Shown: positions 1 to 32,963 of the stretch, piece by piece
How positions within the stretch are numbered: the stretch's first letter is position 1
Layout of the letters: each line of letters begins with the position of its first letter
NCBI GenBank assembly: GCA_008632985.1
Contig: QPGO01000036.1
Coordinates: forward strand, 334,182-398,181
DNA: 64,000 nt
Direction: 5' to 3'
Source of the DNA: Psammoneis japonica
Lineage: Eukaryota
The notes under the pieces: generated by a model
The model's database searches: none
Told to the model about the DNA's origin: nothing
Seen by the model: only the letters and a program-made list of their open reading frames with translations
Position numbers and translations under genes: made by a program

Positions 1-354
1 GACACCCATTGCAAACCAGTCGATGAGCTTTTGCAGGAATGCAGTGGTCGCAAGGAATCTGAAGCCAAGCCAGCAGCCGCTGCGAAAGCGGAGACGGATC
101 TTCCGATGGGGTGTCGTGATGACGAGATAGATCAATTTTATGATGCAAGGGATTGCTGGTCGCAGCACAGCGGAAAAGGATGGTCCGATGGGGTGTCTTG
201 TTGACGAGGAGGAGATGGATCCATGTTGTGATGCAGGGGGTCAGTCGCAGCAAGGTGGAAGAACGGCAGAGAAATTGGGTGTCGGTGGACAGCGTAAATT
301 GTTCAAACAAGGTGCGGTGAAATCGCAACTGCGGCAGTGCCGTTTTAACAGCAC

Positions 355-2345
355 CGACATGCGCCACACCCACAGCCACTGATGCTGCAACTTGCAGCTT
401 GACACAAAGAGCTTGTGGTGATTTCCAGATTCCTTTCCACGAAGCTGACGATCAAACATTTCTAGATTGGTGAGACCGCCAAAGCTTGCTGTTTCATTGA
501 TCGCTGTCTGGCCACAACAGCAACAGGCATCCACAACGAAGAGACTAAAGGCAACCCGTCCCATGGCAACTGCGTCGCGGCGATGCAATTCATAAAACTC
601 ACTGTGGAACTCTCTTTGAAGTCGATCAAATCACGGGCAATGGGACAAATTGAGTGTGAGACAGTGAATTGCGCAACAATGTGGTTGACAAACACGTTCT
701 CCGTTTCCTGTTCTTGCCGCAGTGCTTTCAATGCAACAGTTTCGTTGATTGCACCCACGACGACTTGCCACACATCTCTGAACCAACCCATTTCTCATGC
801 AGCTGACAGAATCTTCAAAGTCTGCATTTGTTCCTGAGTTGCGACCGGTGGCTTGCAACTCCAATTCATGCAACGCATTGCAATTAGGAAATGACAACGT
901 TGCCATTGTGAAGGGCAGACACATTTTTTGTCTTGACGATGGTCCGCAGTGAAGACATCTTGGTGCATTGCAACCTCACCTGCGGTGGTGCGTGCAGTGT
1001 CAAGTCGTCCTCGAGCAGACGTGGATGAAATTCTCTGTCGAAGCCACACGGCGTTCGTCCAAGAATGCCAGACGAGGTGCAGCAGCTTCACCCTTCAGTT
1101 CCTTGTTCGTTGTTGCATCTGTGGATGCGTCGCGCAATGACGAGTCAACGGGAGACTCTTCTGGTGCAGTGGCGGTGTCGTTGCGAACGTCGTGTTCTTG
1201 ATGTTTGGAAATGTGAAGTGCAAAGGACAGCGCAGCAAACAAAATAGAAACAAACGCCAGCACTCCAAAAACAGGTCGCATTTCTCCGGCGTTTAAAAGA
1301 ATGATGGACGAGATTTACGACGGGTTCCAGTCCCAGGTGGGACTTTTTGTGACATTGGGCCCGCAGAATTCTACGTGCGAGCTCCGCAGTAAAATTGTCA
1401 AGCAATGGATGTGTGAATGATCGCCAACAGAAAAAGAGGCAATTTTGCGAATGCATCTCCTCCTCCACACTTGAAGTGCATTCTTTGCAGCATGCCCGGG
1501 TGTGTTCTTTAGACATTGAAGAATGCACCCAGTGCATTTTTATTGACACAAGTGCAGACAACAGAAAGCCTTTGGCTTCGCAAAACAGGCAGTGTGGAAC
1601 AATTTTTTACAATGGAACACGTAGAAATGCACGTGCGAAACATGCGACGGATGACAAAAAATGATTGTGTCACAGTTCAGCAGTGTGAGGTCCCACCCAG
1701 AGCTGGAACATGTCTTGCGCATGGGTGATGGAGTCAAGGAAAGTGCTTGCCTTGCAGTGTCAAAGGCATCACTTTGTGATCGCCGATGCCGAACATGAAA
1801 TCTGCCACATCTGCCCGGGGGGAGCTTGTCTGTGCACTCACTGTTGGGAGAAACAACTGAGAGACACTGTGGCGTTGAAAAACGAGGAATCTCCAACGAT
1901 GCAGGACACCTTTCTGCAACACTAGAAAGTGGTCCGGAACTTCTGCTCTAGTCTCTTCTTCTGTTTTCGGCCTTTCTGTCATGGACAGGAGGCGGACAGC
2001 GAAGTCACACCTTGCTTTCTCGATCTTGGATGGAACATTGTGAATGACGCATGAGGCAGAAAGAGACTCTCTTGAAAATGCGAGGTGTCGCGGCACAAGT
2101 GCTCCCCAGTCTTGTTTGCGCTGAGTTGCACTTCGTGGCAATGCATCGGCATGTTTGAAAGCAAGTCCATCCTGTGAATTCCTCAAAGCTCTTCCTCCCA
2201 TTTTCCCAAACATTTTGCAAACTCGGATGACGATGCCGGCACTGCAGTCTCTCTCCAACGAGGATGATTCAGTCGCAAGACGATTTTCCCTCCATCATTG
2301 GTGAAAACCACCGTTGGCAGCGGCATCGAATTTCTGAAACGCTCA
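355..2345 (-). pseudogene. Degenerate copy of the membrane protein-kinase locus (homologous to ~31045-32680), including intron and upstream region; interrupted by a MITE
   Basis: Colinear with 31045-32680 (e.g. AINETASFGGLTNLEMFDRQLRGKES; SFPNCNALHELELQATGRN). It has frameshifts, the splice donor GTAAG is changed to GCAAG, and TA->TG/CA changes run throughout. Confidence 0.93.
1319..1714. mobile_element. MITE-like insertion (~396 bp) with ~25-bp imperfect TIRs and a 4-bp TSD (TTAC / TTGC)
   Basis: Left end GACGGGTTCCAGTCCCAGGTGGGAC vs reverse complement of right end GACATGTTCCAGCTCTGGGTGGGAC. The empty site GAGATTTACGCATGGG is present in the sister copy at ~6511, and a matching empty site is in the intact gene at ~31996. 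Confidence 0.85.
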
Positions 2346-3550
2346 CGAGTCAAGCTCCATTCGCCCGGACCGTCATGGGCGCTGCCCTTGAAGGAGGCGT
2401 TGTTGAGTGCCACTGCACTCACAATTCAGCATCCAGTGATCACATGCGTCCTGCCAGCACATTCGGTTTGGTGGCAGCATCGCCCACCCGAGTCCAGTCA
2501 TCTGAAACAATGCGAAAACAGTCATGGCCCGAACGACACCTCAGAGAGGAGAAGCCAAACCTTCTGAACAATGTTTCCGACTTGCTCATGTCGGCATTAA
2601 ATGGCTTCCACCTCTTCGTCAGAGGTCTCTGACCCCACTCTGGTTCCCGATTCTGTGTCGTCAGAATCCTTTTCATCAACGACGCAATTCAGATGACCTG
2701 TGCCATCGTCCTTCCATTTCCGGATCTTCATCATAGTTCGCATTGCCGTGACCAGAGCTCTCCACCAACCTGCCAGCATGCCAGCAAGAGAATGAGTGGA
2801 CTTTTCTTCTTCCGAGTCCATTCCGACTTCTTCATCGAACTAAAAAAAGAAAGAAAGCAGACGAGTCAGAAAAGCTTGACACGAGAAAACCTCAAACGAA
2901 CCTGGCCTCCACATCTTGTTTTCAAAACATTTGCTGCAAAGTGACGCATGAGACGTGACGCACTTCTTCAAAGGTTGCAGCAATGCGATGCACGAGATGT
3001 GATGCAAGGATGCAAGACACAAGGGCGCAAACAAGAATGGAAGACCAAAGAGCAACACTCGCCGCTTGCAACCAAGTCTGGGGCCCTGCAAGGAAGCAAC
3101 AACGACCGCTTTTGTAAGAATTGTGTTGGTTCTCGCAGCGCACTGCTCGTGTGCACTTCCAACTCTACAGTGTAGAGAGCGTGCAGCTGTCCTCAGCACA
3201 GCACCATTTAGGAACACGTTCTGGTTTCCATTGTCATGATGTCGAGTGAATCTCACAATTGCGCTGGCATGATCGTGTGGGTCTGAGTTTCCACCAATGA
3301 CACACACCCCATCAATGTCCTTGAGCTTTTCTCGAAATGCCTTTTCCGGTTTGAAATCGGAATTTCACCAAGCCTCGAACTTGGGACCGGCATTCATGGA
3401 CGTAATCACCTTTTGACAGAACATGCAGAGAATGACAGGCATTTGCCCACGCAGTGAAAAGACTGAAACAAACTGCGTCGACTGGAGGCTCACATTTGAA
3501 ATGTGGCCACAAAAGTGCTCACCTTGAAATCTAAGCAGCCACCACACACA
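1715..3550. repeat. Segmental duplicate, copy 1 (pairs with ~6515-8340)
   Basis: Near-identical colinear sequence for ~1.8 kb; differences are mostly transitions at TA/TG/CA/CG dinucleotides. Confidence 0.95.
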
Positions 3551-3554
3551 ATGA

Positions 3555-4090
3555 GTGTCAGACACACAGCAGTGGATTCCTTGTCATCTGCATCAACTTC
3601 ATTGACTCTGGTTCCCCATTCTGTGCCGTCAGAATCCTCTTCATTGGTGACGTCATCCAGACAAACCGCCCATCCTTCCATTTCCGGATCTTCTTCATCA
3701 CAGCTCGCATTGCCGTGACCAGAGCTCTCCACCAACCTGGAGCATGCAAATGTGAGAATGAGCGAACTTTCTTCTTCCAAATGCACTCCGACTTGTTCAC
3801 TGACTAAAAACAAAGCAAGAACACAGCAGACGATTCAGAAAAGCTTGACACGAGAAAATCTGAAACGACCCCACAGTGCCCTCCACGTCTCGTTCAAAAC
3901 CTTTGCTGTGAAGCGACGCATGAGATGTGGCACACTTCTCCAAATGTTGCAGCAACGCGACGCACGAGATGTGAGACAAGGATGCAAGACAGAAGGGGCA
4001 AACAAGAAGGGAAGACCAAAGAGTGACACTCACCGCTTGCAACCAAGCCTGCAAGGAAGCAACAACGAACGCTTTTGTAAGAATTGTGAT
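3555..4090. repeat. Diverged third copy of the ~2620-3125 segment
   Basis: Shared blocks such as CCTTCCATTTCCGGATCTTC, GACCAGAGCTCTCCACCAACC, CAGAAAAGCTTGACACGAGAAAA and GCAAGGAAGCAACAACG. Confidence 0.85.
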
Positions 4091-4255
4091 GATCATCGCA
4101 GCAGCATCGCCAACGAAACAAACGCATGAGTGACTTGAGTGAGTTGTTGAGTTGTTGGTTGTTGATGCTGTTTCGGCACGCTTTTGTGGCTGTGCCAGAC
4201 AGCCCGTGGCATTCCACCACTGCAATCTTGCCGAAATCGAACGAAAGTTCAAAAA

Positions 4256-4552
4256 GTGGTCGACCTTTTTTTGAATTTTTTCACAAGAGGTCGACCCTTT
4301 TTCAAAAAAAAAGAATCGAACCTCCAAAATTACAAAGAACCTCCAAAATCACAAGAAGAGGTTGACCCTTTTTAGATTGCCGGCAGTGGTCGACCTTTTT
4401 TTGAATTTTTTCATAAGAGGTCGACCCTTTTTCAAAAAAAAGAATCGAACCTCCAAAATTACAAAGAACCTCCAAAATCACAAGAAGAGGTTGACCCTTT
4501 TTAGATTTTTTCACAAAATGCTGCATGTCGTCGACCCTTTTTGAAAAAAAAT
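4256..4552. repeat. Tandem duplication of a ~131-bp unit built from GTCGACC(C)TTTT and GAACCTCCAAAAT motifs
   Basis: 4256-4378 is near-identical to 4387-4508, with a further partial motif at ~4530. Confidence 0.9.
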
Positions 4553-5802
4553 TTAACGCGTGCACGTGCTGCACAGGCCACTCTAGCTAGAGCAGCTGGT
4601 GGAGAGAGTGCCGGCACACGCAGTGACGCACCATGCTGTAGAGTGGGACTGGATGGATCCAGGATGATTGATTCTTCATTCGATCGCGGGTCGCGGTCGC
4701 TTGTGTTCTTGATTTACGAGCACATTCATCATTCATCGACGGTGCTTTTGAGCATTCCGTCGAGACTCAAGCTGTCGAGGCATCAAGAAGAAGCGACAAA
4801 ACAAAGGAAAGAATCGTGGTGTTCAGGACATTTAAGAACTCTGCAAGGTGGTGGAACCTGCGGCACATCGGAGCCATTTTGAGAGAGATGATGAAATCGA
4901 AAATGCAGGAGCAGTTTTGCAGATTCCACGAGCAGAGGCAGCCGCTTGTCGAATTGCCAAGCAAGAGCTGGACCCACATTTTTGATTCACATTCCAGCAG
5001 CTCTTTTGTTTTCTCATGATTTGCAAGAATGGCTGAACAAAACGAGTGGCAGCGCAACGAAGAAACAACATGCACGTCCTTTTCCGAACGCGCAGCCTTG
5101 AGCCTTTGTGGAGTGCGTCGGTCCCAAGAGCACGCCATTTCGCAACAAACTGAATCCATGCACTGCTTGGATGGATGGAATGGCAAAATTTCGAAATGAG
5201 TTTTGGTGTTTAGAGCCATGGGGGAGAGTGCCTGAAGACCAGTGTCTGTCCGTGCATGTGTTGGAAGCCGTGGTTCTTCCCATGCATGTTGACATGACAC
5301 ACTCCAAGGGCAAAACGGTAGACTGGAGCCATTTGGGATTAGCCAGAAGCAAAAGTTGCAATCTCATGCGGCTGATTTGCTTTTTCGACATGCCAAACTT
5401 GCACATGCCGGCACAAGAATCATTGAGCGGGGCAACTCGGAGAGAGAAGGACTGCACAGCACTTGGATCAACCTCCCAAAACAATGCATTGTCACTCTAG
5501 ACGACGAGACTCGACACGACGAAAACATGACTCGTCCCGGTCTTCCTGACATCCTGGTGCATGTAGACTTGGAACCCCAGAACTTGATTTTTCTCGTAAA
5601 GTTGGTGCAGCATCAAGTCACGCCGTTTCTATGCTGGATTGGGAGGAAGCTGCTTGTGCAGATCCACAATTTGAATTGTTGATGCTGTGTCGCAGGGTTT
5701 GCGCCAGTGATGATCAAGCCACTCATCTTTTGGGATTTTTGCTCTAGGAACCAAATTGTCCCGCTGGAATGTTGGAGAACAAGGCATTCATTGCTGGCAT
5801 CC

Positions 5803-7152
5803 CTGAACCGTGTCCGGCTAAAGCTCAAAGCGATTCACAGCTTGTGCACGTCACTGATGCAGGGTGTGGATCTGTTGGGGTGGGGTGGCAGGAGAAACCC
5901 ATGGCAAACCAAGCCAGACTTGCTGGTCAAGATTCAAAGTGAATGGAAACGATTGTACAATGTGGGTTGGGGGTTTTACAGAGCTGCCAGAGATTGAAGT
6001 GTTGCCAGTCATTGTGCGATGTTGCCATTTCTGGATGCTTCATCGTCAAATCCATGAGCGCTTCCAGCAAAACTGAGGCAATGTCCTCGGCAGAAGTGCG
6101 TTTGTGTGGATCCAAGACAAACCAAGTACGATCGGATCGTCTGAATTGATGTGCATTTTGTGGAGTGCAGGTGGTTGTCCATTCGCCACTTCGAAACGGA
6201 CCACATCAATTTGCCTCTTCTTGTTCATTTTCTCACGGGGTGAATGGGATGTCAATGCAGGTGTTGCGTCAGCACCACATGCTTGATGAACATGCGCCAT
6301 GCCCACACAAACTGACGCTGCAACTTGCAGCTTGACAAAAAGAGCTTGATGTGATTCCTTTCCACGAAGCTGACGATCAAACATTTCTAGATTGGTGAGA
6401 CCACCAAAGCTTGCTGTTTCATTGATCACTGACTTGGAAACAAACACCAGTGCTCCAAAAACAGGTTGCATTTCTCCGGCGTTCAAAAGAAAAATGACCC
6501 ACTGATGGACGAGATTTACGCATGGGTGATGGAGTCAAGGACAGTGCTCGCCTTGTAGTGTCCAAGGCATCACTTTGTGATCGCCGATGCCGAACGTGAA
6601 ATCTGCCACATCTGCCCGGGGGGAGCTTGTCCGTGTGCTCAGTGCCCGAGAGAAACGACTGAGAGACACCATGGCGTTGAAAAACGCGGAATCTCCAACG
6701 ATGCAGGATGCCTTTCTGCAACACTGGAAAGCAGTCCGGAACTTCTGCTCTAGTCTCTTCTTCTGTTTTCGGCCTTTCTGTCATGGACAGGAGGCGGACA
6801 GCGAAGTCACACCTTGCTTTCTCGATCTTGGATGGAACATTGTGAATGACGCATGAGGCAGAAAGAGACTCTCTTGAAAATGCGAGGTGTCGCGGCACAA
6901 GTGCTCCCCAGTCTTGTTTGCGCTGAGTTGCACTTCATGGCGATGCATCGGCATGTTTGAAAGCAAGTCCATCCTGTGAATTCCTCAAAGCTCTTCCTCC
7001 CATTTTCCCAAACATTTTGCAAACTCGGACAACAATGCCGGTGCTGCAGTCTCTCTCCAACGAGGATGATTCAGTCGCAAGACGATTTTCCCTCCATCAT
7101 TGGTGAAAACCACCGTTGGCAGCGGCATCAAATTTCTGAAATGCTCACTAGT
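5803..7152 (-). pseudogene. Second degenerate, internally deleted copy of the kinase locus (homologous to ~30290-32670)
   Basis: Starts CTGAACCGTGTCCGGCTAAAGCTC as at 30290 and encodes remnants such as VRFEVANGQPPALHKMHINSDDPIV (parent ...KMYINSDDPIV). Several internal deletions join distant parts of the parent. Confidence 0.92.
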
Positions 7153-8340
7153 CAAGCTCCATTCGCCCGGACCGTCATGGGCGCTGCCCTTGAAGGAGGC
7201 ATTGTTGAATGCCGTTGCACTCACAATTCAGCATCCAGTGATCACGTGCGTCCTGCCAGCACAGCAGTGTCGCCCACCCGAGTCTGGTCATCTGAAACGA
7301 TGCAAAAACAGTCATGGCCCAAACGACACCTCAGAGAGGAGAAGCCAATCCTTCCAAACAACATTTCTGACTTGCTCATGTCGGCATCAAACAGCTTCCA
7401 CCTCTTCGTCAGAGGTCTCCAACCCTGCTCTGGTTCCCGATTCTGTGTCGTCAGAATCCTGTTCATCGACGACGCAATTCAGATGACCCGTGCCATCGTC
7501 CTTCCATTTCCGGATCTTCATCACAGTTCGCATTGCCGTGACCAGAGCTCTCCACCAACCCACTGGTGTGCCAGCAAGAGAATGAGCGAACTTTTCTTCT
7601 TCCGAATCCATTCCGACTTCTTCATCGAACTAAAGAAAGAAAGAAAGCAGACAAGTCAGAAAAGCTTGACACGAGAAAACCTCAAACGAACCTGGCCTCC
7701 ACGTCTCGTTTTCAAAACATTTGCTGCAAAGTGATGCACGAGACGTGATGCACTTCTTCAAAGGTTGCAGCAACGTGACGCACGAGATGTGATGCAAGGA
7801 TGCAAGACACAAGGGCGCAAACAAGAATGGAAGACCAAAGAGTGACACTCACCACTTGCAACCAAGTCTGGGGCCCTGCTGCAAGGAAGCAACAACGACC
7901 GCTTTTGCAAGAATTGTGTTGGTTCTCGCAGCGTGCTGCTCGTGTGCACTTCCAACTCTGCAGCGCAGAGAGTGCACAGCTGTCCTCAGTGCAGCACCAT
8001 TTGGGAACACGTTCTGGTTTCCATTGTCATGATGTCGAGTGAATCTCACAATTGCACTGGCATGATCGTGCAGGTCTGAGTTTCCACCAATGACACACAT
8101 CCCATCAATGTCCTTGAGCTTTTCTTGAAATGCCTTTTCCGGTTTGAAATTGGAATTTAACCAAGCCTCGAACTTGGGACCGGCATTCATGGACGCAATC
8201 ACCTTTCAACAGAACATGCAGAGAATGATGGGCATTTGCCTGCGCAGTGAAAAGACTGAAACAAACTGCGTTGACTGGAGGCGCACATTTGAAATGTGGC
8301 CACAAAAGTGCTCACCTTGAAATCTAAGCAGCCACCACAC
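6515..8340. repeat. Segmental duplicate, copy 2 (pairs with 1715-3550)
   Basis: Direct colinear match; lacks the MITE. Confidence 0.95.
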
Positions 8341-8522
8341 ACAACGCGATCCATCTTGAGGAACCCGCCAGTGCTCTTGATGTCATCCAGCACACTGTCC
8401 AACACTTGCTGAGCTTCGACTGGTGATTCCTTGTTGTTGTCTGCAGACCATTTACAATGCCATTCGCGTGCAACTGTGTCAAAATCGACACCAGGTGCAA
8501 TTGTGGCGAATTGTCTTTGCAT
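8075..8522 (-). pseudogene. Pseudogene of a small conserved algal protein of unknown function (FDTVAREW.CKWS.DN ... RVVCGGCLDFKV ... F.PEK.F.EKLK); partial second copy at ~3270-3550
   Basis: Motifs recognisable in ORFs 8199-8522 and 7849-8202, separated by a probable decayed intron; TA-depleted. Family recognised from memory, not searched. Confidence 0.7.
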
Positions 8523-9548
8523 GTGAGATTTGTGAAACTGAAAGACTCGAAACAGATGGGGAGAAACAAGTCAAACATGAAGAGTTTCGAGACGCCACCG
8601 TTGTTGACATCGATGATGAATGACGACTTGGAAGTTGAACGTAGCGAGCGAGACAAGCTTCTCAAGACGAGGGCGACTGCTCTGAAATGTGCTTCCATCT
8701 TTCCCAGAAAGAACGAGCCTTGGGTTGTGCCAAGCCACCCATGAGAGAGAGAGACCTTTCCTTCCATTTCAATTGTCTGAGAATGTCCCCATGATTGTTT
8801 GCTCAACGCAAGACAGATGGAATTACATGCTGTGCTTCTGGTCAAAGCAAGGGGTGCGTGACGAAACAAATCTCAACTCACTCTGCGCCTCGAGTCATGC
8901 CGCGACTGCGGACATTTCGGGCAAGGGATGAAGACAACGTTTGAACGCAGAAAGAAGCATCTTGAGCCGATGACGAGAGCGCCGCAGCCAAGCAAGGCAA
9001 GAAAATAATGACGCGAGTATCCGGAGCTACGAGCTGTGCCGCACTTGACGCAACCAAGGGACAAGCTAGGGCTGTCGTCATTTAGCACGAGGCAACCCCA
9101 AACCTGAAGCCTAAAAAGCCGCATCCATCGCATCCGGACTTGAAAAAAAGATACAAGATACCATGATCCGAAAGAATAGAAAGCTTCGTGTACTAAGAAA
9201 AATAATAGTTGCATCAAAGACGATACTGTAGTGAGCATAATCATTCTTCTCCTTTCTTCATAGTGACGTATTGGCTTGTCTACTATCTTGAAGACTCTAT
9301 GAAAAATTTGGATTCAAGTTGGATATACAAAAAAATTCGTATACATATAAATAATAATAACGTTCAACGCATCTCCCGCCAAAAACGGGCGGAAATGATG
9401 ATAACATTTTGGTTTCTTCGTCTTCAGTCAGAATCCAGCCATGAGCTCCCTTCAACCTGCGTTGTGTCGCCGTCTTTCTTGAAATTGTTGAATAACAAGG
9501 CGACTATTGAGTCGTCATCGGCTCAATAGAGAGCGATAAGAGTAGACA

Positions 9549-10124
9549 ATGACTGCTAATTCGATTTTTCAGATTGATTATGCGCTTGCGAACCGAGGAA
9601 GGAAAAATTGTGAGGCTCGACGCGTAGTTCATTGGAGATACGGATATTCTTGTGACGAAACGAATGAAACCAATGAAGTCGAAGTTGTTTTTACCTGGTG
9701 GCTGTCTTCAGGTAAACAACTTATTGAAGTCAATGGACAGGAGCAGTTTTCCGGCAAAAATGCTTCAGCCAGCGTCTTTGATCACAAGTTCAAGGCGCAA
9801 AACGGACACGAACTTCAAATTGTTGCAACTAGGACCCCTCCAAACAACGTGAGTGCTCAGTTTCGAAGTTTTGAGCTGCTCGTGTTTGGAAAATCATTTT
9901 TTACCTACCCTCTGCTGGGAGAAGCAATGACCGAACGGAACGAATATGTATCCACCAGCGACAGCGGCGCGTCTTCGATTTTGGATATTCTTTATCCGGA
10001 GAAATCTGCTTTCGAAGAAAAAGAAGAGTATGTGGTGATCTTTGAACCCTCAAGCCCTTCACGTGCTGTATATCAAGAAGACAATCATGGAGGACGAGGA
10101 GCAGGACCAGACTTGTTGCTTTGA
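9549..10124 (+). CDS. Conserved hypothetical protein, 191 aa (diatom-type RRVxWRxG ... WxLxSGK ... FRxFELxVxGxSFF family)
   Basis: Clean ATG-to-stop ORF with normal Tyr content and natural composition, in a TA-normal island. Confidence 0.8.
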   Translation: MTANSIFQIDYALANRGRKNCEARRVVHWRYGYSCDETNETNEVEVVFTWWLSSGKQLIEVNGQEQFSGKNASASVFDHKFKAQNGHELQIVATRTPPNNVSAQFRSFELLVFGKSFFTYPLLGEAMTERNEYVSTSDSGASSILDILYPEKSAFEEKEEYVVIFEPSSPSRAVYQEDNHGGRGAGPDLLL

Positions 10125-10699
10125 GCGAGACGAAATGACGACATTGGTAAAGGAGGACCAAGTTGAGCTGCTGGTCTTCTTGCGAGAGAACGCCAGTAAA
10201 CTTGTACAACACACGATAGGTGTTTTACGGTAGCTTGTTTGCATTTTATAAAGAAAAACTTTAACTACATTAGCTGTCTCAATTTACCATATCCCCCCAT
10301 GTGGCTAGCGACCGTGACTGACTGTGGTCAGGGTTAGGCGTTCACAACACTGTGTGTGCACGGTAATGTACAGTATTTGCCATCATGCATTTCGCTGTTG
10401 GTCAGCTTTCATATGCAACTATCTGCATTCCTCGTGCTGTAATAGACTCAACTGCGAACTCTCCAGTCATGGATCTGACCAGAATCATTTCTCTATTGGC
10501 GGGCAGGTCGCAATCCCCAGCATTGTTCTCTGCCTGCACAACAACAAAATGAAACTACAAACACTCGCTTTTAATGCATGTAAGAAGTAAAGTACAGCAG
10601 TGTGTTTCCTTAGTCATCGTGAGACCTGCCGACCTTCAGCTTGTCTTACCCAGCCTTTGGTAGCCGTTCTGGACAATGTGGCTATTGGTCGGCACTGCC

Positions 10700-11823
10700 T
10701 AGAAAGTTCATGGTTCCCTTTCCCGTGCCATTGGGTTGTCCTTGATTTTCCAAACACGTTTCAACTGCATAAATGAGAAAACCGTACATGCATCAGCATG
10801 TTCGAGGAGGAAATTTTGAGGGAAGAAGCGGTACAAAGGAGGGTGCATACCTTGTATGCTCCTGGAACCAAAGCATCGAAAGCATTAAGAAATCGCTTCG
10901 GGTGATGCTTAACAACGTAGTCTCGGGTGCTCTGATCAGTGTAGAACCTATATATCCATCCAGAAGTCTCCCACGTGTTCTTCAACTGCGCAAGATCGGG
11001 ATATCGGTCGGACGTGATTTCATCCCACCACGTCTGATGGACAATTCTTGGTATTCTTCCATGTCGTTGGATTCTATCATTGAGAGCTTTCTGTGGTGGC
11101 GGTCTTGAAACTGAAACCTCTACCTGTCCGTGTCAAGAATTGTCGAAAACAATTCCGCGGGAGAGGTCGTGTTCTTTAATCCCTTGATGTCGCGCATCAA
11201 AGACTTCACGTATTAATGGCGAGGAGAAACCGCAAACAGACAAAAGTCCAATTATCCTTGCCTGTTTTGGTTTGTTTCGAAGCTAGTTGCGAAGTGGACT
11301 GCGCGAATACCACCGCACCTCGAGCTATACATGGTTTGCTCTCTCTTCAAGCAAGATATGGCTGAGTTTTCATCTTCCGTTTCAGAGATATGAGTAAGAT
11401 ATCATACATGGTCTGCGACAAAACAGCCTCCGAACTGATACAGGCTGCAAAGGGCCCAAATAGATTCTATCTGAGTTTGAGGCGGATCTGTAGGCTTCAT
11501 CAAGACTTCTACCGAAGTGCGAAACCGTCCTCTGCATATCTTCCTTATCAAAGAGAATCACTTTACCAGATATCCCTCGCATTGGCTTGATCCACTCTGT
11601 AGGCTGGAGAATCACGTTCGGGATTCTGGATGGAAGTTTCAGCATAGGCCCCGAGTTGCGCGTGTTGTTGCGCCAGAGTGAGCACGATTCCTCCCACTCG
11701 TTAGCTTGGTATGTTAGATCATGCAGTGAATGTTCTCCTTGAGCAGCTTTTGTGAGTGTCTGTACTCTAGTGCCCCGTGCGAGAGACTATGACTCGACAT
11801 CAGAATCCCCAACGCTTGCCATC
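10700..11823 (-). pseudogene. Glycosyltransferase family 32 (OCH1-like, DXD sugar-binding) gene remnant or disrupted gene
   Basis: Translation around 11050-10850 gives IPRIVHQTWWDEITSDRYPDLAQLKNTWETSGWIYRFYTDQ...AFDALVPGAYK, followed by a GT..AG intron. The expected ADLFRY/DXD part does not follow, and the upstream frame MASVGDSDVES* has an early TAG. Confidence 0.6.
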
Positions 11824-12157
11824 GTGACTGTACAGTAGCTGTAGCTTTAGCAGCGTTTCGTCATAAACGCGAGAACGAACTTTCGAGTCCCCATATTCCA
11901 AACCGTCCACCTCGAAAAGGAATAAGGGGATCCAAATAATGTCCGATGATAAGCCAAGTATGAGAACGCAGAGGAACAGAAAGCGCGCAGGCGTTGTTTT
12001 CGAGAAGACCAGCGAAGCGAGAAAACCGAATCAGCAAAAAATGAGACAGACCACGGAATGATTTCCAATGTTGCTTCGCTTCCCTTCTCCGTTTGAACCG
12101 TCCGGTCGTTTTTTCATCTCATCGTCCTGTGTGTTTTCGAGCTACAGTATTTCCAAA

Positions 12158-12506
12158 TATGACATTTTAGAATGACTGTGGACATTTCAAGACGTAAACT
12201 CTTAGAATTTCTACAGGCTGAGAGTCAGACATCAGAAAGTTTCATGCAAGTGTCGAACCTCCACCGTGAACCTTAGTACAAATCTACGAGAGAGACATTC
12301 GAAGAGTGTCTATTTTCTTACGTGGTCCAGAAGGCATTGAGATCACTTCTCACGCAGATCACTTTTAGATTAGTTCAGCTCATAATTTCAACTAAGCACG
12401 AGTTAGTAAGACAACTCATTGCTGTTTTACTGGCTTTTAGTACCTTGTGCTGATTGTCAGCACTGCATTCTACAGACAGGACTTGTTTCCCAGGCAGAAT
12501 CCCACA
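12158..12506 (+). repeat. 5' LTR
   Basis: TATGACATTTTAGAATGACTGTGG...AGAATCCCACA; aligns with 26327-26688. Confidence 0.93.
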
Positions 12507-12521
12507 GGCGCTTCCTCTGCG
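12507..12521 (+). promoter_or_regulatory. Putative primer-binding site GGCGCTTCCTCTGCG
   Basis: Directly abuts the 5' LTR; its complement CGCAGAGGAAGCGCC resembles the D-arm of eukaryotic initiator tRNA-Met. Confidence 0.5.
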
Positions 12522-12579
12522 ACCTGCTTCGCAACTTCAGTTTCAAGTCAGCCATTGATCGAAACCAAGCCCTCTGACG

Positions 12580-14100
12580 ATGGTCAACACATGCACTTCC
12601 ATTGCATCATTGACATCTCCTGGGACTTCAGGAGCTCCAAAGACTGCTGGCATGACTGCTGGCTCTCCTGATGCTCCAGCTCCTGTCGGAGCTGCTGCTG
12701 CTCCAGCTCAAGCAGCCGCGCCGGCTCCACCGGTCCCACCAGCTCCTCCCGCAGGTGGTGGCGGAGGCAGTGGTGGAGGAGGTCCTGCAGGTGGTGGTGG
12801 CGGCACTCCACCAGTGCCTCCCATGCCTCCTGCTGCACCTGCTGCAGGACCAATCTTCGCACTGACCCCCCAGGCCAACACCGTCCTGATGATTGGATCG
12901 ACCAAGGTCTCAAATTGTGGCACGCGGCTGCTGCACCACTGCCCCACAAGTTCAACAGAGACTCTGAAGGTCTCAACAAGTTCTGTGAAGTTCTCAACAA
13001 ACAAGCAGCAGAGTCAGGATGGAAGTCGGGAATGGGAAACATCACTTTAATCCCAGACAGCAACGGCGCCAATCGTGACCCAATCACTGAGCATGGAAGA
13101 CTCTTGCCATTCAGAACATCTGGGATCATGCAACCGGATGCATGGGTGTCCAGTCCAGGCAAGCTCAGAACCAAGTCCAAATGGCTGAAGCGATCTCTCA
13201 TGTGCTCACTGCAGAAGCCAGAGACAAGATCATCGCCAAAAGCAAGCAATGCAAGATCAATGGCGCACAAGTTGGCACCCTGTTTTTCAAGCTGCTTGCC
13301 AGCTGCTTACCCAGAAGACCATTGTGGACACTTGTTTGACTGCAAACTGCTTCAAAAAGAACCTCTCTAGTCTGGACTCATGCATTCCAACCTGCAACTC
13401 CAACATCGAAGAGTTCAACAAGTGTGTCAAGCTCAACTGGGACAGTCTCAGAGCCAGGGGAGAAGGTTGCGATGACCTTGTTGTGAACTTGCTCAAGGGA
13501 TGCATTGCTGCTGGTGACCAAGCCCATGTCAAGTGCATGGCTGACATCAAGCAAAAGTGTGATGATGGTGAGGATTGCACCCCGGAGTGAGTCATGAAAC
13601 TGGCACTGGACAAGTGCACTAACCTGGATCGAGCGGCAAGTGGGGAGCTCTGTCACCCAAAGAAGAGAAGATCATCACTCTCTCCTCTGAGGTTGAGACC
13701 ATCAAGGATCCCAATCTCAAGCTCTCCAAGGCTCTCAAGAGTGGTCCCAACAAGTCCAAGGGAGGTGGTGGCAAGCAGAACTCCAAGAACAAGAGCAAGA
13801 ATCCAAAGCGTGCCAAGAAACAGGACGAAGCCTGGAAAAAGACTCCGCCAAAGGACGGTGACCCCACAAAGACTGTCAATGGACACAAGTGTCATCACAA
13901 GAGTCAAAAAGGACGTGACTGCTGTTGGTGCAAGCACCACTCCACTTGGGCAGCTCACTCACCAGACGATCCAGGAGAGACAAAGGCTGTGGACTGCACA
14001 AAGCTCAAGAATCCGAGAGTGGGTCATCCAACCCCAACAAGAAGGTGTCCCACGCCAATGCTCTGGCATCTGTCATTGAAGACCTCGAGTCCAAGGAATG
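12580..14100 (+). pseudogene. Copia gag remnant
   Basis: Pro/Gly/Ala-rich N-terminus, then DDLVVNLLKGCIAAGDQ...KQKCDDGED (CoDi-type gag with Y->C changes); frameshifted. Confidence 0.75.
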
Positions 14101-14449
14101 ACCAGTCTGGGAAGCTTTCCAGACACGGGCTTTCTGCATGAAGGTGGTCCTCATGACGCTCACAATTGCCCCAGTCATCACGAGCTTCATGGATGCTGTG
14201 GCTCCACTGCTGTCGATCACAATGTTCAATTCACTCAACCTGCAGGAGAAGAAGTGGAAACACACATCTAAGTCAACAATGATGTTGGGCGAGTGGATCA
14301 TTTTGCAAATCCCAGCTGATGGTGTGACTGGCAGACACAAACCATGATGGAACAAGAGTCAGCACTCACCGAGATGTGTCACTCCCAAGAAGAAGGGCCA
14401 TCCTTCTTGAGCAGCCTGCAAGAAGGCTCAACGCAAGATCACCTTTCAC

Positions 14450-16532
14450 AAGATGGTCTGCACCAATGCCTTTGCCATCACAATGCCATTCAAACAAGAG
14501 CCAAGAATGGAGCCAGCATCCTGCGACTCTGACTCCTTCATCATTGGTGTCAACAACCACGCAACCTGCACAATGTCAAATGACAGATCACATTTTGTTG
14601 GCAACCCACGTCCCACAAACAAGCAGATCAAAGGAGCAGGTGGATGGTTGGACACAGAAGAAGAAGGTGCTCTCAAGTGGTGCATTGAGGATGACAATGG
14701 GGACAGATGCATGCCATCACAACATGCAACGCATTGTGCATCCCGCACTTGCTGATTTGCCTGCTCTGCCCCCAGCAGTGGAGTCAGCAAGCACAGAATC
14801 ATCATCCTGAACCACACGGGATGACTTCCTGGAACCAAGACGACGGTCTCCAGCTCATGTGGGATCAAAGGAAGTGCAAAAGGCTGGTCCCTTGGACCAA
14901 CAACTCCAGCATTGCATGCTTCCATTCCGCACCCGGTGCCACCAACTGTCAGGCATTCGCCGCCACAGTTGATGCTGAAGACAACATCAAAACTGTCGAG
15001 CACACAGCCTTGCAAGATGCACGTGACACCTCCAGACAACAAAGTGACTCAGAGTCCTTGGACACTGTGAATGAGAAAGACACCTTCACAAGTCCTGACA
15101 AGACAGGCACTGACGAGACCCCAGGTGCATGCAACAATGTTGATGAGGATGTGCCACCATTGTTCAAACCAACAGATGTTGCACACAGATCCGACTCACC
15201 TGTTGAGAACCTCAAGGATCTGGCAACCCCAGATGTCCAATGTTAGATCAAAGATCCCATCAACATTGTCCCTGTCAATGAAGCCCTTGCGGCCACTGAC
15301 AACCAAGGTGAATTGTTGCATTGTGGCACTGTTGCCTTGGACACCAATCGCTCAAAATGATCAAGCTCCTGGCTGCCTTGGGTGTCCTTCTGAGACGCCT
15401 CCCAAAGGTGAAAGACCCAAAATGTGCCAGCTGCCTCTGCGGCACCATGACCAAATGCCCTTGGCATGCCAAGTCCAAATGCAAGTCAAACACACATGTC
15501 ACTGCAAAGACAGGGGAGGTTGTCTCTGTGGATCAGCTTGAAAGCTCAACTCCAGGATTCATCCCACAACTCAAAGGGAGACCTGCCAAACAGAGATGCA
15601 GAACAGCAACAGTGTTTGTGGATCACCACTTGAAACTGGGACATGTGTTCCTGCAATGTTCACTCACCTCCAACGAAACCCTGAAGGCCAAGCATGCATT
15701 CAAGGCCTTTGCGAGACAACATCATGTGCAAATCAAACACTGCCATGCTGACAATGGCCAATTTGCAGACAACGCTTTCATGCAAGATGTTGAAAGACAA
15801 GGTCAGACTGTGTCACATTGCAGCATCAATGCCCACTTCCAAAACAGCATTGCAGAAAAACGAATCTGAGACCTGCAAGAACAGACACACAAGCAGCTGC
15901 TGCATGTGAAAGCAAGATGGCCAATGGCTGTTGAGATCAATCTCTGGCCAAGTGTGTCACACAACTCCAACAAGATCAAGAACAACTCACCTGGTGACCA
16001 ACCCAGTGGCAGGTCTCCAATTGAACGATTTGCCTCCATCAAGGTTGCTCCCAATCTCAAGCAAAACCACACTTTTGGATGCCCCATCTGCATGCTGGAC
16101 AACCAGCTGCAGAGTGGACAGAGAGTGCCTGAGTGGTGGTCAAGAGCAAGGTCAGAAATCAACTTGGGACCATCACCAAGACAAGCTGGTTCAGTGAACC
16201 CAGCACTCAACCTCAAGACTGGACTCACCTCACCACAGCTCCACGTTCAATTTGACAACTTCTTCAAAATGGCACACCCTTCAGCAGGGAATCCTGCTTT
16301 CTTGCAATGGCAAACTGCGCCAGGCCTGAAGAAGCAAAAGGGTTTGAGATTCAACACATTCAAGCCCCAAAGGGAGGCAAGGGAGCCTTGCTCTGCTGCG
16401 CCGGTGCAGAACACTTCAGCACCGGAACCTGACGTTCCAAGACAACTCAAAGACGAAAATTTTCCAACTGCAGACAATGAAACGTTTGAGCCAGTGGAAG
16501 ATGTGCCTGCTCAAGACACTCAAGAGGCAACA
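14450..16532 (+). pseudogene. Copia protease/integrase remnant
   Basis: WHCCLGH and CASC zinc finger, VSVDQLESSTPG, FVDHH, HCHADNGQFADNAF (canonical HYHADNGRF), AHFQNSIAEKRI, HTFGCP. Confidence 0.92.
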
Positions 16533-18866: not shown

Positions 18867-19993
18867 GGCACAACAACAGCCCCTTACTTTCCCAACATTC
18901 CCATTTGCCCCTTTCCCCTTTCATCCCGCAATTCCCGGGTGCACCCGTGGATCCCGTGTTAATACATGAATAAAAAATAATACATTGGAAATTCCCCGTG
19001 CTTCCCCTCTCGTACATTTCTACGCGTTCTCTACGTATGAGCTAGACAATCGACCGACCGCAACAAAAATGGGCAACACGCCATGGCGCGTTCGCATCCC
19101 ATTTATGACGGCTGTTGTCTATCAATCACGACACCGTTCAATGTATTCGATAATATCGATTGAACGGGATCTATAGCATAAAATATAAGATGAAATATGA
19201 TTGCACATGTGCAGAACACCAGTGCAATTGATCGTTGGGCGTCAGTTGTTTTTTTGTTGTGCAATCACAAATGTAAGCCATAAAGCGTACAGTAAAGGCC
19301 AAGGCAAAAGTAGAACCACATATAGCTAATAATAATAATGTGGCGGATTGAATAGTCACCCTCATTCTTCCAATATACACATCTTATGTGCAGAATGAAG
19401 GGGATCGTTTAGATCACTCTTTTGTCGTCCATTCCAGAAAGGCAAGCCATGAGGCGTCTAGTGTGAAGGATAAGGCAAAAGTAGAATCGCATATGGTTAA
19501 TAAAAATATGGCGGATTGATTGATAATGTTTCTTCTTCCCTTTGACCTATCTGATGTACAGAATACGGTGTATCATTTATTCCTTCTTGTGTCGTGTGGT
19601 CACAAATGCAAACCACAACGGCTCTAGAGCAAAGGCTAAGGCAAAAATAGAGCCACATGTGAGCAATGTTAATATGTATGATTTAATGGTAAAGTTTATT
19701 CTTCCCTTACTCTACCATAAGGGGCCGCTTTGTGTCGATTTGCATCCGTCATGGTCGTGCATCGTTTTTTCCGCGCGCCGGTCGCCATGAGAATAAAAGC
19801 ACACCCGCCTGTCTATAATTACCGTACATTACCGCATTCCATTCGTTTTTTGTTCCCCTCCCCTGAGCCCTTTTAGTCGTTCCTTCCCGCTAAATTACCC
19901 TCATTTCCCGGGCATTCCCCAAAAGGGCAAGGTAATTCCCCCTTACCCTTGCCATTTTGGGGAATCCCCAAACGGATAAAACCAAACTGAGCC
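18867..19993. mobile_element. TA-intact 1.1-kb insertion, probably a younger non-autonomous element, with three ~170-bp diverged internal repeats
   Basis: Abrupt return of TA dinucleotides. AAGGCAAAAGTAGAA-type repeats at ~19300, 19472 and 19638. Ends (AA)GGCACA ... TGAGCC(TT) form a short imperfect inverted pair. Confidence 0.55.
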
Positions 19994-20004
19994 TTGCAAC
20001 GCTC

Positions 20005-20520: not shown

Positions 20521-20599
20521 TGTTTTGCACAGAAGTCTGTGCAGAAATGTTTTTTGCACATGCAGAAACATGCTGGAATCTGCAAGAGCACCAGAGCAC

Positions 20600-26283: not shown

Positions 26284-26326
26284 TTTAGATTCAAGTCACA
26301 GCTGCGCCCAACACTTTCAAAGGGAG

Positions 26327-26688: not shown

Positions 26689-26699
26689 CCAAATTGTTG

Positions 26700-30484: not shown

Positions 30485-32359
30485 TTACTCATTATGAGAT
30501 GTTGCTATTTCTGGATGCTTCGTCTTTAAATCCAGGAGCGCTTCCAGCAAAACTGAGGCAACCTCCTTGGCGGAAGCGCGTTTACGTGGATCCAAAACAA
30601 AACAGAGTTTCATTGCTTTCTTAATTGCAAGCACGATCGGATCATCTGAATTGATGTACATTTTGTGGAGTGCAGGTGGTTGTCCGTTCGCCACTTCGAA
30701 ACGGACAATATCTAGTCGCTTCTGCTTATTCATTTTTCCACGGGGTGAATGGGATGTCAATACATGATAGAGTAAGTTGCCCAAGCTGTAGACATCCGCC
30801 TTTTCGTTTACGAGGCGAAGTTCACCGGGTTTCGGTATCACGACCTCTTCCGGTGCGCGCCACCAAGGCTCGTGCAAACGAGAAGGAAAGCCGCAGGTTT
30901 CGTTTGTCTTGGGATTGATCCGTAAAAACTCTGCAGTGTTGAAATCATTCAACTTTGGTTTACCGTTCTTCACAATAGCAATGTTGCGAGGGTTTAAGTC
31001 GTAATGCACCATTGCAGGTATTGCGTCAGCACCATTTACTTGATGGACGTGCGCTACGCCCACAGCAACTGACGCTGCAACTTGCAGCTTGACAAAAAGA
31101 GCTTGTGGTGATTCCTTTCCACGAAGCTGACGATCAAACAATTCTAGATTGGTGAGACCGCCGTGGCCAAAGCTTGCGATTTCATTGATCGCTGACTGGC
31201 CACAGTACCCATAGATATCCATTACGAAGGGGCTAAAGGTAAGCCGTTCCATAGCAACAGCATCGCGGCGATGCAATTCGTAAAACTCGCTGTAGAACTC
31301 TCGTTCAAGTCTATCAAATGACGGGCGGTAGGATAAATTGAGTTTGAGATAAATTAGGCAACAATAATGTTGACAAACATGTTCTCCTGTTTGATCTTAC
31401 CGTAGCGTTTTCAATACGACAGTTTCGTTGTTTGCACCCAAGTTGACTTGCCACGCATCTCTGAACCATCCATTTCCCATGTGGCTAACGGAATCTTCAA
31501 AGTCTGCATTCTTTCCAGCGTTGCGACCGGCGGCTTGCAACTCTAATTCATGCAACATGTTACAATTAGGAAATGACGACGTTTGCCATTCTGAAAGGTA
31601 GACACAGTTTTCGTCGTGATGGTCCGCAGTGAAGCCGTCTTGGGGCATTGCTTCCTCACCCGGTGGTGCGTGTAGTGTCAAGTCGTCCTCGAGCGGACGT
31701 GGATGAAATTCCCCGTCAAAGCCATGGCGTTCGTCAAAGTATACTAGACGCGGTGCAGAAGCTTCACCCTTCCGTTCCTTGTTCGTCGTTGCCTCTGTGG
31801 ATACGTTGCGTAACAATGAGTCAACGGAGCTCTCTTCAGGTACTGTAGCGGGGTCGTTATGAAAGTCTTGTTCTTGATGTTTGAAAAGATAAAGTGCAAA
31901 GGATAGCGTAGCAAACGAAATGGAAACAAACACCAGTATTCCAAAACAGGTCGTATTTCTCCGGCGTTTCAAAGAAAAATGACCCACTGATGGACGAGAT
32001 TTACGTATCGGTGATGGAGTCAAGGATAGGGCTCGTCTTGCAGTGTCCAAGTCATCACTTTGTGATCGACGATGCCGAATGTGAAATCTACCGCATCTGC
32101 CTGGGGGGAGCTTGGCCGTACTCACTGTCGGAGAAAAGCGACTGAGAGACACTGGCGTCGCCAAACGAGGAATTTCCAATGATGCAGGATAGCTTTCTTC
32201 AACACTATAAAGTGGTCCAGAACTTCTATTATTCTCTTCTTCTTTCATTGCAGATGACACGGGTGATGCGAATTCGGAATCAACGGTGTTTTTTGCGGCC
32301 TTTCTGTCATGGACAGGAGGCGGAGACATGTGCTGCTTTCTCGTGCTTGAATGGAACAT
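30485..32359 (-). CDS. Type II membrane protein kinase, paralog 1 (exons 32359-31401 and 31310-30485)
   Basis: TM helix followed by a kinase domain: GNGWFR loop, VVLK, HYDLNPRN, LNDFN, WRAPEE, DVYSLG. GT-AG intron 31400-31311 restores the frame (KTLR/LEREFY). The start may be the second Met. Confidence 0.92.
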
Positions 32360-32963
32360 TATGAATGACGCACGTAGAAGAAAGAAAATCTCTCGAAAAT
32401 GTGAGATGTCCTGCTACAAGTCTCCAAGTACTCCCAAGTTGCTTGTGCTGAATTTCGCTTTGTAGCGATGTGTCGGTATGTTTGAAAGCTAGTCCGTCCT
32501 GTGAATTCCTCAAAGCTCTTCTCCTATTTTCCCAATCTTTTTGTAAACTCAGATAACGATACCCGTACTGTAGTCCCTCTCCAACGAAGATGATTCAGTC
32601 GCACGACGACTTTCCCTCCATCATTGGCGAAAACCACCGTTGGGGAGCGGCATCGAATTTTTGAATCGCTCGCTCACGAGTCGTCGTCAAGAACCCGACC
32701 GGCGTGTTTGTCCGTTGAGTCTTACGAAAATTACAGTATGACATTTGTGTGAAATCGACAGAATCAGTGCACACCAATGATCAGACTTTGTTGAGTGTGC
32801 TTCCCGAATTGATGTGTCACAACATTACAAGCATGTAGTTAGATGCCGGCAGTAAGCACTGAAGTCTGAAGTTGCATGAAGTGAGTGATCAACTAGAGTA
32901 GAGAGTACTCTCTCTCTCTGCTGTGGCTGGAATTGATTTTTAGAAATTTGGAGTAGATTTCTA

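Follow-up and report, generated by a model that had tools for sequence, protein, structure and literature searches.

Conversion of TpA to TpG and CpA in bounded non-genic blocks of a Psammoneis japonica contig, with retention in neighbouring genes

We analysed a 64-kb window (the whole stretch of 64,000 bases) of the genome of the diatom Psammoneis japonica, contig QPGO01000036.1, positions 334,182 to 398,181, which contains an intact protein-kinase gene (the parent), an intact paralog of it (paralog 2), and two pseudogene copies of the parent, A and B. A preliminary description of this DNA had proposed that TpA dinucleotides (TA) in the copies were mutated to TG or CA at the DNA level and that the intact gene was spared. 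That observation is confirmed and is stronger than first stated, and the reading of the change as DNA-level, TA-specific and parent-sparing is supported; the chemistry and a targeting by chromatin state are what we infer beyond this. As read from the sequence, A:T-to-G:C transitions occurred at TpA on both strands equally and only within sharply bounded non-genic blocks, gene-bearing blocks lying a few tens of bases from these were spared, and CpG was lost to TpG or CpA in the same blocks, more slowly, as it is in methylated DNA. The described loss of TA from the copies holds, but its extent had been understated, since the copies sit in one of eight stripped domains that make up 63% of the window.

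Changes at TpA in two copies of a kinase gene

The parent gene, which has an intron of ~90 nt near 31307–31396, encodes a protein kinase (Pkinase, PF00069, E 1.5e-17). Among named proteins, those most closely related to it come from diatoms (Bacillariaceae, Mayamaea, Fragilariopsis, Pseudo-nitzschia and Skeletonema; 54–57% identity), and its best unnamed match is 78% identical. Copies A and B read as pseudogenes because both are fragmentary with internal deletions, two of them in copy B. A single gap-tolerant alignment of copy A part 1 passes through the parental intron; the copies are therefore DNA copies and not retro-copies. The two copies also share a flank that the parent lacks, and 1715–3551 aligns with 6516–8344 at 93.0% identity. 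As ordinary DNA-level duplicates sitting in a depleted block, A and B allow the direction of the process to be read; the window provides a clean internal control, since the parent is intact, the two copies were mutated independently, and an intron and the flanks on both sides can be compared as well.

All five replacements listed in the preliminary description are exact (parental positions 31249, 31290, 31396, 31541 and 31597, corresponding to 561, 602, 713, 859 and 914, respectively, in copy A). Among 62 parental TA dinucleotides aligned with copy A, 6 were kept, 24 read CA, 23 read TG and 9 had another state; for the 52 aligned with copy B, these numbers were 5, 22, 20 and 5, respectively. 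Both outcomes thus occur, as had been claimed, and their CA:TG ratios (24:23 and 22:20) are strand-symmetric. Parental CG was kept at 57 of 96 aligned sites in copy A (17 CA, 13 TG, 9 other) and at 40 of 72 in copy B (12 CA, 12 TG, 8 other). The remaining parental dinucleotides were kept in 64–88% of cases, and the low end consisted of those that overlap TA, such as GT in GTA. Tabulated by base, transitions affected 48 of 124 TA bases compared to 42 of 702 other A/T bases in copy A (Fisher p 3.5e-20), and 44 of 106 compared to 43 of 638 in copy B (Fisher p 1.4e-18), in agreement with the proposed TA specificity. Transition fractions were 39–41% for TA bases and 5.6–7.8% for other A/T bases, and transversions at TA bases were few (9 vs 48 transitions in copy A and 6 vs 44 in copy B). 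The A>G rate was 0.39–0.42 when the 5′ neighbour was T, compared to 0.08–0.10 for C, 0.04–0.07 for A and 0.04–0.05 for G, and the C>T rate was 0.156–0.161 before G and 0.028–0.043 before other bases, a 4- to 5-fold difference. This CpG erosion in the copies is a feature that had been little stressed before.

The changes extend beyond coding sequence. TA sites were changed at 5 of 6 positions in the intron, 9 of 11 in the 5′ flank of each copy and 12 of 14 in the 3′ flank, comparable to the exons; the site map used for these counts is one site off from the dinucleotide fates given above. The presence of the intron and both flanks in the copies, the equal frequency of TG and CA, and the independent mutation of A and B after their duplication (see below) bear out the claim of change at the DNA level. 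Strand-coordinated runs gave a signal too weak to use (15 observed vs 22 expected in copy B, p 0.02; 21 vs 24 in copy A, p 0.23; none among the A/B double mismatches).

We polarised the changes with an alignment of 60 kinase-family homologues. Where the copies have CAC or TGT in place of a parental tyrosine codon (TAC or TAT), the family carried the parental and the copy residue in ratios of 18:0, 47:0, 49:0 and 37:0, and 9 of 10 changed TA-containing parental codons in the conserved part favoured the parental state as ancestral. The copies thus lost TA and the parent did not gain it, as the parent matches the family at the tyrosine positions where the copies encode histidine or cysteine; under this alignment, the opposite polarity, in which the intact gene gained TA, finds no support. 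Paralog 2, which had been suggested as the outgroup, proved too diverged for this purpose at 73% identity: at 18 sites with TA in the parent and TG or CA in copy A, it agreed with the parent in having TA at 4 and with the copy at 6, and had another state at 8.

Both the intact parent and paralog 2 retain normal TA, as first described. In the parent, the observed/expected ratio (O/E) of TA was 0.65 in the intron, 0.73 in the 3′ flank, 0.50 in the 5′ flank and 0.49–0.60 in the exons, and hence 0.49–0.73 throughout. Because the intron and flanks are as TA-rich as the exons, selection on the protein is not what preserves parental TA. Purifying selection, which had been offered as an alternative account of the sparing of the parent, is ruled out by these TA-normal non-coding parts.

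Independent hits on one ancestral TA leave TG in one copy and CA in the other half of the time, and thus produce adjacent double mismatches. Such CA~TG doubles were present between A and B and in each of seven other pairs of repeats, and there were none between the two intact genes, which served as the control (Table 1). Over 1,825 aligned bases, A and B differed at 112 positions, 102 of which were transitions; 94 carried the TA/CG signature (24 CA~TG pairs, 36 CG~TG/CA and 10 TA~TG/CA), and 18 mismatches in the 1,825 bases (1.0%) did not. Among five A/B doubles aligned to the parent, four derived from ancestral TA and one from CG. At parent-aligned TA sites, the copies had the same fate at 11, different fates at 4, and a change in one copy only at 2.

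Table 1. Adjacent double mismatches of the CA~TG type in pairwise comparisons
Pair	CA~TG/all adjacent doubles	Remark
A / B (1715–3551 vs 6516–8344)	24/26	
17603–18610 vs 23200–24210	26/33	
17649–18606 vs 60989–61933	26/34	
23246–24461 vs 60989–62186	22/31	
17006–17474 vs 22729–23200	11/18	
22238–22937 vs 59873–60578	13/30	
2637–3139 vs 3605–4102	4/11	
Q / S (12160–12506 vs 26329–26688)	5/7	Q outside depleted blocks
Parent vs paralog 2, both intact	0/40	control

Given these fates, about 60% of TA would have been intact when A and B split, and by this reckoning A and B lost most of their TA separately, after they had been duplicated. Rates and timing calculated from the A/B/parent site comparisons indicate that roughly 88–90% of the fast TA sites were lost per lineage after the split, compared to 0.5% of other sites, which would place the TA rate since then in the order of 100–1000 times background per site. 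This rate is about 10 times that of CpG loss in the same DNA, where ~21% of CpG was lost per lineage. Divergence that preceded the split amounted to 8–9% between copy and parent at other flank sites (17/203, 18/200 and 16/193), and changes by codon position were nearly even in copy A (22/22/37 and 6/5/6), compared to 21/10/61 in paralog 2, which is under selection. Because of this even distribution and prior divergence, the copy appears to have been a neutral pseudogene for a long time, with moderate TA loss, and TA loss appears to have quickened at least tenfold at about the time of the A/B duplication.

Stripped blocks and the sparing of their neighbours

Two-state segmentation of the whole window, fitted on the probability of A after T, assigned 40,504 bp (63%) to eight TA-depleted blocks, with TA O/E of 0.04–0.13, and 23,395 bp to seven normal blocks, with TA O/E of 0.50–0.81 (Table 2). 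The two kinds alternate, and their borders were resolved to ~50 bp. Within depleted blocks, the O/E of TG and CA was 1.4–2.1 and that of CG was 0.17–0.78, compared to 0.87–1.05 for CG in normal blocks; in depleted DNA as a whole, TpA was removed and CpA/TpG raised to an O/E of 1.68. Depletion in block 9–8971 extends to all of its sub-segments, including 4509–5753 (TA O/E 0.17) and 8345–8971 (0.07), which have no repeat within the window and single-copy contig depth.

The two kinds of block also differ in content. Normal blocks carry credible long frames, namely both kinases, a MoaC gene and open reading frames (ORFs) of 541, 273 and 266 aa, and one of them (58199–59388) scarcely exceeds its ORF at 58535–59353. 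Depleted blocks hold pseudogenes of the kinase and of a cysteine synthase, a Copia-like remnant, retroelement-like repeats, repeats resembling long terminal repeats (LTRs), and a satellite. Only 3 of 86 scanned ORFs of at least 130 aa matched Pfam and 83 did not; these 86 were taken from 90 listed ORFs, the other four being kinase exons that were scanned separately. No viral gene was recognised among the 86 ORFs of the window. Because nearly all TAA and TAG stops have been lost, the stripped blocks are full of empty reading frames, and most of the ORFs without a Pfam match are such frames left open.

Table 2. Coordinates of the blocks, genes, copies and repeats in the window
Feature	Position	Strand	Description
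Depleted block	9–8971		TA O/E 0.11, CG O/E 0.78; contains both kinase pseudogene copies
Depleted block	12483–18788		TA 0.05, CG 0.31; contains Copia-like remnant
Depleted block	19988–28664		TA 0.08, CG 0.24; cysteine synthase pseudogene and LTR-like copy S
Depleted block	33108–34551		TA 0.12, CG 0.58; separates the two intact kinase genes
Depleted block	42138–47015		TA 0.06, CG 0.17; satellite, 23 monomers, unit ~186–190 bp
Depleted block	50089–53355		TA 0.13, CG 0.70
Depleted block	55829–58197		TA 0.04, CG 0.26
Depleted block	59399–63998		TA 0.10, CG 0.46; third retroelement-like repeat copy (60989–62186 = 23246–24461 at 87.6%)
Intact parent kinase gene	30485–32413	-	Two exons; frames 32413..31397 and 31396..30485
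Intact paralog 2	34935–36811	-	Pkinase E 5.8e-19; 73% identical to parent over 30726–31594
Copy A part 1	356–1319	-	= 31046–32005, 82.2%; exon 2 start, intron, most of exon 1
Insertion splitting copy A	1320–1714	.	395 bp; absent from parent; very high-copy short repeat
Copy A part 2	1715–2351	-	= 32001–32682, 76.5%; 5′ end of exon 1 and upstream flank
Copy B (5754–7149) piece 1	5754–6259	-	= 30239–30764
Copy B piece 2	6253–6434	-	= 31010–31197
Copy B piece 3	6435–7149	-	= 31921–32674
Shared flank, A side	2352–3551	.	Common to A and B, not in parent
Shared flank, B side	7150–8344	.	
Copia-like remnant ORF	15312–15866	+	gag_pre-integrase match; matched by 3,365 library proteins (E ≤ 0.001)
Cysteine synthase (PALP) pseudogene	20693–21335	+	Residues 129–353 of a 359-aa diatom protein, 53–61% identity
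Satellite	42516–46937		23 monomers of 179–198 bp
LTR-like repeat Q (TG...CA ends)	12160–12506	+	Edge of normal domain; 18 TA
LTR-like copy S	26329–26688		In depleted block; 3 TA
Non-coding island	18789–19977		TA O/E 0.81, GC 43%; internal ~168-bp repeats; between two stripped blocks

The sites that survive reveal a wider context. For each NTAN class, we divided its density in depleted DNA by its density in normal DNA. This ratio was 0.000 for ATAT (counts 0 vs 136), 0.004 for ATAC/GTAT, 0.038 for GTAC, 0.051 for ATAG/CTAT, 0.077 for ATAA/TTAT, 0.091 for CTAC/GTAG, 0.163 for GTAA/TTAC, 0.226 for CTAG, 0.297 for CTAA/TTAG and 0.611 for TTAA. Sites of the form R-T-A-Y accounted for 6 of 226 surviving TA sites compared to 284 of 1,026 in normal DNA, whereas Y-T-A-R accounted for 130 of 226 compared to 210 of 1,026, and the survivors were enriched for T at −1 and −2 and for A at +1 and +2. 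If A is taken to be the target, the changed fraction was 41/73 with a 3′ C, 20/57 with T, 17/59 with G and 10/41 with A; in 15 of 17 cases at ATAC/GTAT, the change lay on the A-T-A-C strand. R-T-A-Y is thus nearly erased and TTAA mostly retained, and the target context is broader than TA alone.

We compared positions 1–20000 of the window with contigs (~60x) from a public DNA run, which may be the sample behind the assembly, so that its independence is uncertain. Apart from this run, the listing of public data gave two small runs of the same sample and none of RNA. A data set of unrecorded kind covered only 9446–10885, within a TA-normal block, and showed a loose end resembling a splice, from which we draw no conclusion. 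The stripped sequence was reproduced with 0 differences over 12965–13745 and 14553–15938 and with 1–4 differences in other stripped pieces of 600–2,600 bases, and an artefact of base calling at modified bases is unlikely. Block 9–8971 differed from the run at 20 positions, of which 12 were CG<->TG/CA, 6 lay in three CA~TG doubles and 2 were of other kinds; one of the doubles has CG in the parent and two reflect copy B aligned on copy A. Single TA/TG or TA/CA differences numbered 0 of these 20 in this one DNA data set, a count that has no bearing on current activity either way. At 849–850, the window reads TG, the public-run contig CA and the parent CG; these versions are probably alleles in which a CpG seems to have been deaminated on opposite strands.

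Two sets of homologous sequences straddle a block border, the parent with A/B and Q with S, and in both the member on the normal side was spared. Q and S are 82.3% identical, with differences that include 17 TA~TG/CA, 7 CG~TG/CA and 5 CA~TG. The island at 18789–19977 is multi-copy, with a summed contig depth of 1,257–1,381 compared to ~60, and among its other copies 4 of 9 variants are TA>TG/CA; it may be a young insertion that is still unmutated. Because the parent, Q and this multi-copy island were spared while single-copy stretches of 9–8971 were stripped, the pattern favours sparing by position over sparing by homology, while leaving some room for a duplication trigger.

Known systems and candidate explanations

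The closest precedent comes from mutation-accumulation lines of the chlorarachniophyte Bigelowiella natans, in which an integrated giant virus and a virophage received 231 of the 302 new nuclear mutations; all but one of these were A>G or T>C, every such change was at TpA, and the rate was ~6e-7 per site and generation (Mettrop et al., bioRxiv 10.64898/2026.01.13.699255). Hypermutation appeared in only some lines, at a rate ~1000 times that of the rest of the genome, and the genome has clusters poor in TpA and rich in CpA and TpG, where domains of reverse transcriptases and DDE transposases are overrepresented. The authors propose adenine deamination in DNA by an ADAT2-like enzyme, and the main text of the preprint makes no mention of diatoms, CpG or context beyond TpA. 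Our window resembles this case in having almost only A:T>G:C changes, confined to TpA, with TpG or CpA depending on the strand, in particular regions, at a rate orders of magnitude above background. By its sequence-level features, the window reads as an instance of B. natans-type TpA hypermutation. The two cases differ in lineage (a diatom, thus a stramenopile, vs a member of Rhizaria), in what is recorded (a fossil record vs de novo events) and in degree, as TA O/E is 0.04–0.13 here, over 63% of the window, compared to 0.45 in the B. natans virus region. The targets identified here are host-gene pseudogenes, LTR-type repeats, retroelement remnants and a satellite, with no viral gene recognised among the 86 scanned ORFs, and the coupled decay of CpG and the loss of R-T-A-Y with sparing of TTAA are seen here and, as far as its main text goes, not in the preprint. 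Our search of open PubMed Central papers and bioRxiv, with subscription journals outside its scope, found nothing that linked diatoms with TpA loss. With the preprint's one alga as the only other report of TpA-specific hypermutation in what we covered, a saturated signature in a diatom would turn what looked like a curiosity into a general phenomenon.

Repeat-induced point mutation (RIP), known from Neurospora and other fungi, changes C to T at CpA, creates TpA, mutates both partners of a duplication and makes DNA AT-rich. Like RIP, the process described here is a dinucleotide-specific transition hypermutation that ruins duplicated or transposable DNA in place and leaves a sharp-bordered compositional scar. 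Unlike RIP, it destroys TpA, its stripped blocks are not AT-rich, and, judged apart from recognition thresholds, it does not mutate all copies, as the parent and Q are unmutated while their copies are stripped. Methylation of transposons is known from diatoms, and the 4- to 5-fold excess of C>T at CpG together with the reduced CG of the stripped blocks resembles the decay of methylated CpG; such decay explains only the slower CpG component, however, and cannot remove TpA. TadA acts natively on U-A-C, and the adenine base editors derived from it likewise prefer U/T-A-C. An enzyme working like TadA/ADAT2, in the sense of a comparison and not of membership, would fit a target A with a 5′ T and best with a 3′ C, although the natural enzymes act on tRNA. 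We know of no established natural deaminase that acts on adenine in chromosomal DNA. Deaminase clades do occur in stramenopiles, including one restricted to them, and one is fused to SAM and 1–22 Tudor domains (Iyer et al. 2011, PMC3239186). An ADAT2 paralogue or the stramenopile-only, Tudor-array-fused deaminase (PMC3239186) are accordingly named here as candidate enzymes.

The window records DNA-level TpA-to-TpG/CpA hypermutation in bounded non-genic blocks, which in our view was probably brought about by enzymatic adenine deamination aimed at silenced chromatin. A TadA/ADAT2-like or other stramenopile deaminase with a preference for T-A-Y would convert adenine in DNA to inosine; this enzyme would be guided to silenced, CpG-methylated chromatin and not to sequence homology as such; and its role would be genome defence, as a mirror image of fungal RIP. 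Several points weigh against this explanation. The silenced state of the chromatin is itself deduced from CpG loss and gene content. Polarisation by paralog 2 is ambiguous (4 TA, 6 copy state and 8 other, n = 18). The late onset of rapid TA loss can be explained by a duplication trigger no less readily than by a lasting chromatin state, and, because T-A-Y reads as R-T-A from the opposite strand, modification of thymine would be equally compatible with the motif. Finally, a TA-stripped domain was seen in 0 of 25 loci with kinase relatives from other diatoms (~230 kb of gene-rich metagenome contigs, a weak absence because repeats assemble poorly), where one 1.1-kb stretch was marginal (positions 781–1864 of locus L023, TA O/E 0.34). 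The process may be lineage-restricted, or the repeats may merely be missing from metagenome contigs.

A trigger by duplication, as in RIP, would have repeats sensed, perhaps only at sexual reproduction, and TpA mutated in the repeats and the DNA between them, with chromatin state as a consequence. In Neurospora, RIP affects linked duplicates plus the intervening DNA. The largely independent TA loss in A and B after their duplication (fates 11/4/2; 24 CA~TG doubles per 1,825 bp with 1.0% other divergence) speaks for such a trigger, as does the independent mutation of the three retroelement-like copies after copying. We nevertheless regard it as unlikely, given that the parent kinase, although related to A and B, is untouched even in its intron and flanks, that Q retains TA although the related S is stripped, that the multi-copy island keeps a TA O/E of 0.81, and that depletion does not fade away from the duplicated cores into the single-copy stretches 4509–5753 and 8345–8971. 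Alternatively, the targeting could be the same and the chemistry different, with a modified base at TpA (5-hydroxymethyluracil, a base-J-like base or N6-methyladenine) that miscodes or is misrepaired to give T>C or A>G. 5-Hydroxymethyluracil occurs at TpA in dinoflagellates. TA and CG are both self-complementary pyrimidine-purine steps that decay to TG/CA in the same blocks, CpG loss through 5-methylcytosine being the parallel; the strand symmetry is exact (24:23 and 22:20), and the motif can equally be read as R-T-A. This chemistry is rather improbable in our judgement: TA loss in the younger blocks is ~4–7 times CpG loss, a high ratio for a lesion that miscodes passively, the window sequence gives the reading no direct support, and the B. 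natans precedent proposes adenine deamination, also without proof (bioRxiv 10.64898/2026.01.13.699255).

Two other explanations fare much worse. ADAR-like A-to-I RNA editing, with the edited copies then reverse-transcribed and integrated, would agree with a U/T 5′ to the edited A, which is the ADAR preference quoted in the main text of the B. natans preprint (bioRxiv 10.64898/2026.01.13.699255), and part of the stripped DNA is retroelement-derived. It is extremely unlikely, however, because the intron and both flanks are present and changed in the copies (5/6, 9/11 and 12/14 TA sites), both strands are equally affected, the 3′ preference is for C/T and not G, and A/B, the satellite and unique spacer DNA were all mutated in place; the intron, flank and strand data exclude ADAR-type hyperediting with retro-copying. 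An artefact or a misread polarity, whether through base-calling errors at modified bases, TA gain in the intact genes, or selection or composition, is very unlikely. Modified DNA can give systematic long-read errors, and paralog 2 shares the copy's state at 6 of 18 sites, but the public-run contigs, possibly not independent, reproduce the stripped sequence, family alignments place tyrosine where the copies read histidine or cysteine, the parent's non-coding parts are TA-normal, and A and B show TG and CA, respectively or conversely, at one ancestral TA.

Returning to enzymatic deamination, we suggest tentatively that diatoms, or this lineage of them, possess an enzyme system that deaminates chromosomal adenine at T-A-Y, aimed at silenced non-genic chromatin as a defence that mirrors RIP. 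If so, the same TpA signature in a rhizarian alga would raise the possibility of an old system of the stramenopile–alveolate–rhizarian (SAR) eukaryotes, and the enzyme would then count as the first natural editor of adenine in DNA, of interest for base-editing work. The neighbour preference narrows the search for it, and with other-diatom loci that lack the domains, comparing diatom genomes that carry the signature with those that do not could point to the gene.

Individual elements and annotation

The Copia-like remnant has no tyrosine in 185 aa and a combined histidine and cysteine content of 13.5%, compared to a family median of 6.1%; the four family-conserved tyrosine positions read TGC, TGC, CAT and TGC. 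The adjacent ORF at 15870–16598 had no protein match in a word-indexed search. Among the best 150 library representatives of 15312–15866, histidine or cysteine occupied three of the four conserved tyrosine positions in P0246 and two of the four in P0186 only. P0246, a Copia-integrase relative of 174 aa with 0.6% tyrosine, 12.6% histidine plus cysteine and cysteine at three of the four positions, may be a hypermutated copy from P. japonica or another organism. Loss of TAA and TAG leaves long empty frames on both strands, which gene finders would miscall, and tyrosine-free false 'proteins' may already sit in public protein libraries.

The cysteine synthase fragment, which matches diatom sequences best, has 0 tyrosines in 230 aligned residues; its ERYLS motif carries Y>H, its frame is interrupted by one stop, and its pairwise alignment has a gap of 16 residues. 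TA O/E in its surroundings is 0.00–0.03, and no parent gene was found in the window. In the satellite, monomer columns mix states (TA/TG/CA 9/4/7 in one and CG/TG/CA 5/10/4 in another), and CA on the + strand (O/E 2.14) exceeds TG (1.62). In most eroded TA/CG columns one derived state prevails, which indicates that the array kept expanding after mutation.

The insertion that splits copy A has a summed contig depth of 51,672 (bin 1335–2001) and 1,606 (bin 668–1334), compared to ~60 for single-copy DNA, with several loose contig ends at 1409–1608 and a TA O/E of its own of 0.22. Because this high-copy insertion is itself TA-poor, a TA-poor element may still be multiplying. Elsewhere in the same stripped block, 4255–4507 consists of two units of 129 bp that are 98% identical and contain GGTCGACC palindromes, and is a recent tandem duplication. 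Within a TA-normal block, 47166–47848 and 48443–49126 form a weak inverted repeat (66.6% over 692 bp) that overlaps the ORFs 47090–47887(+) and 48398–50020(-), which look like two diverged paralogous genes face to face.

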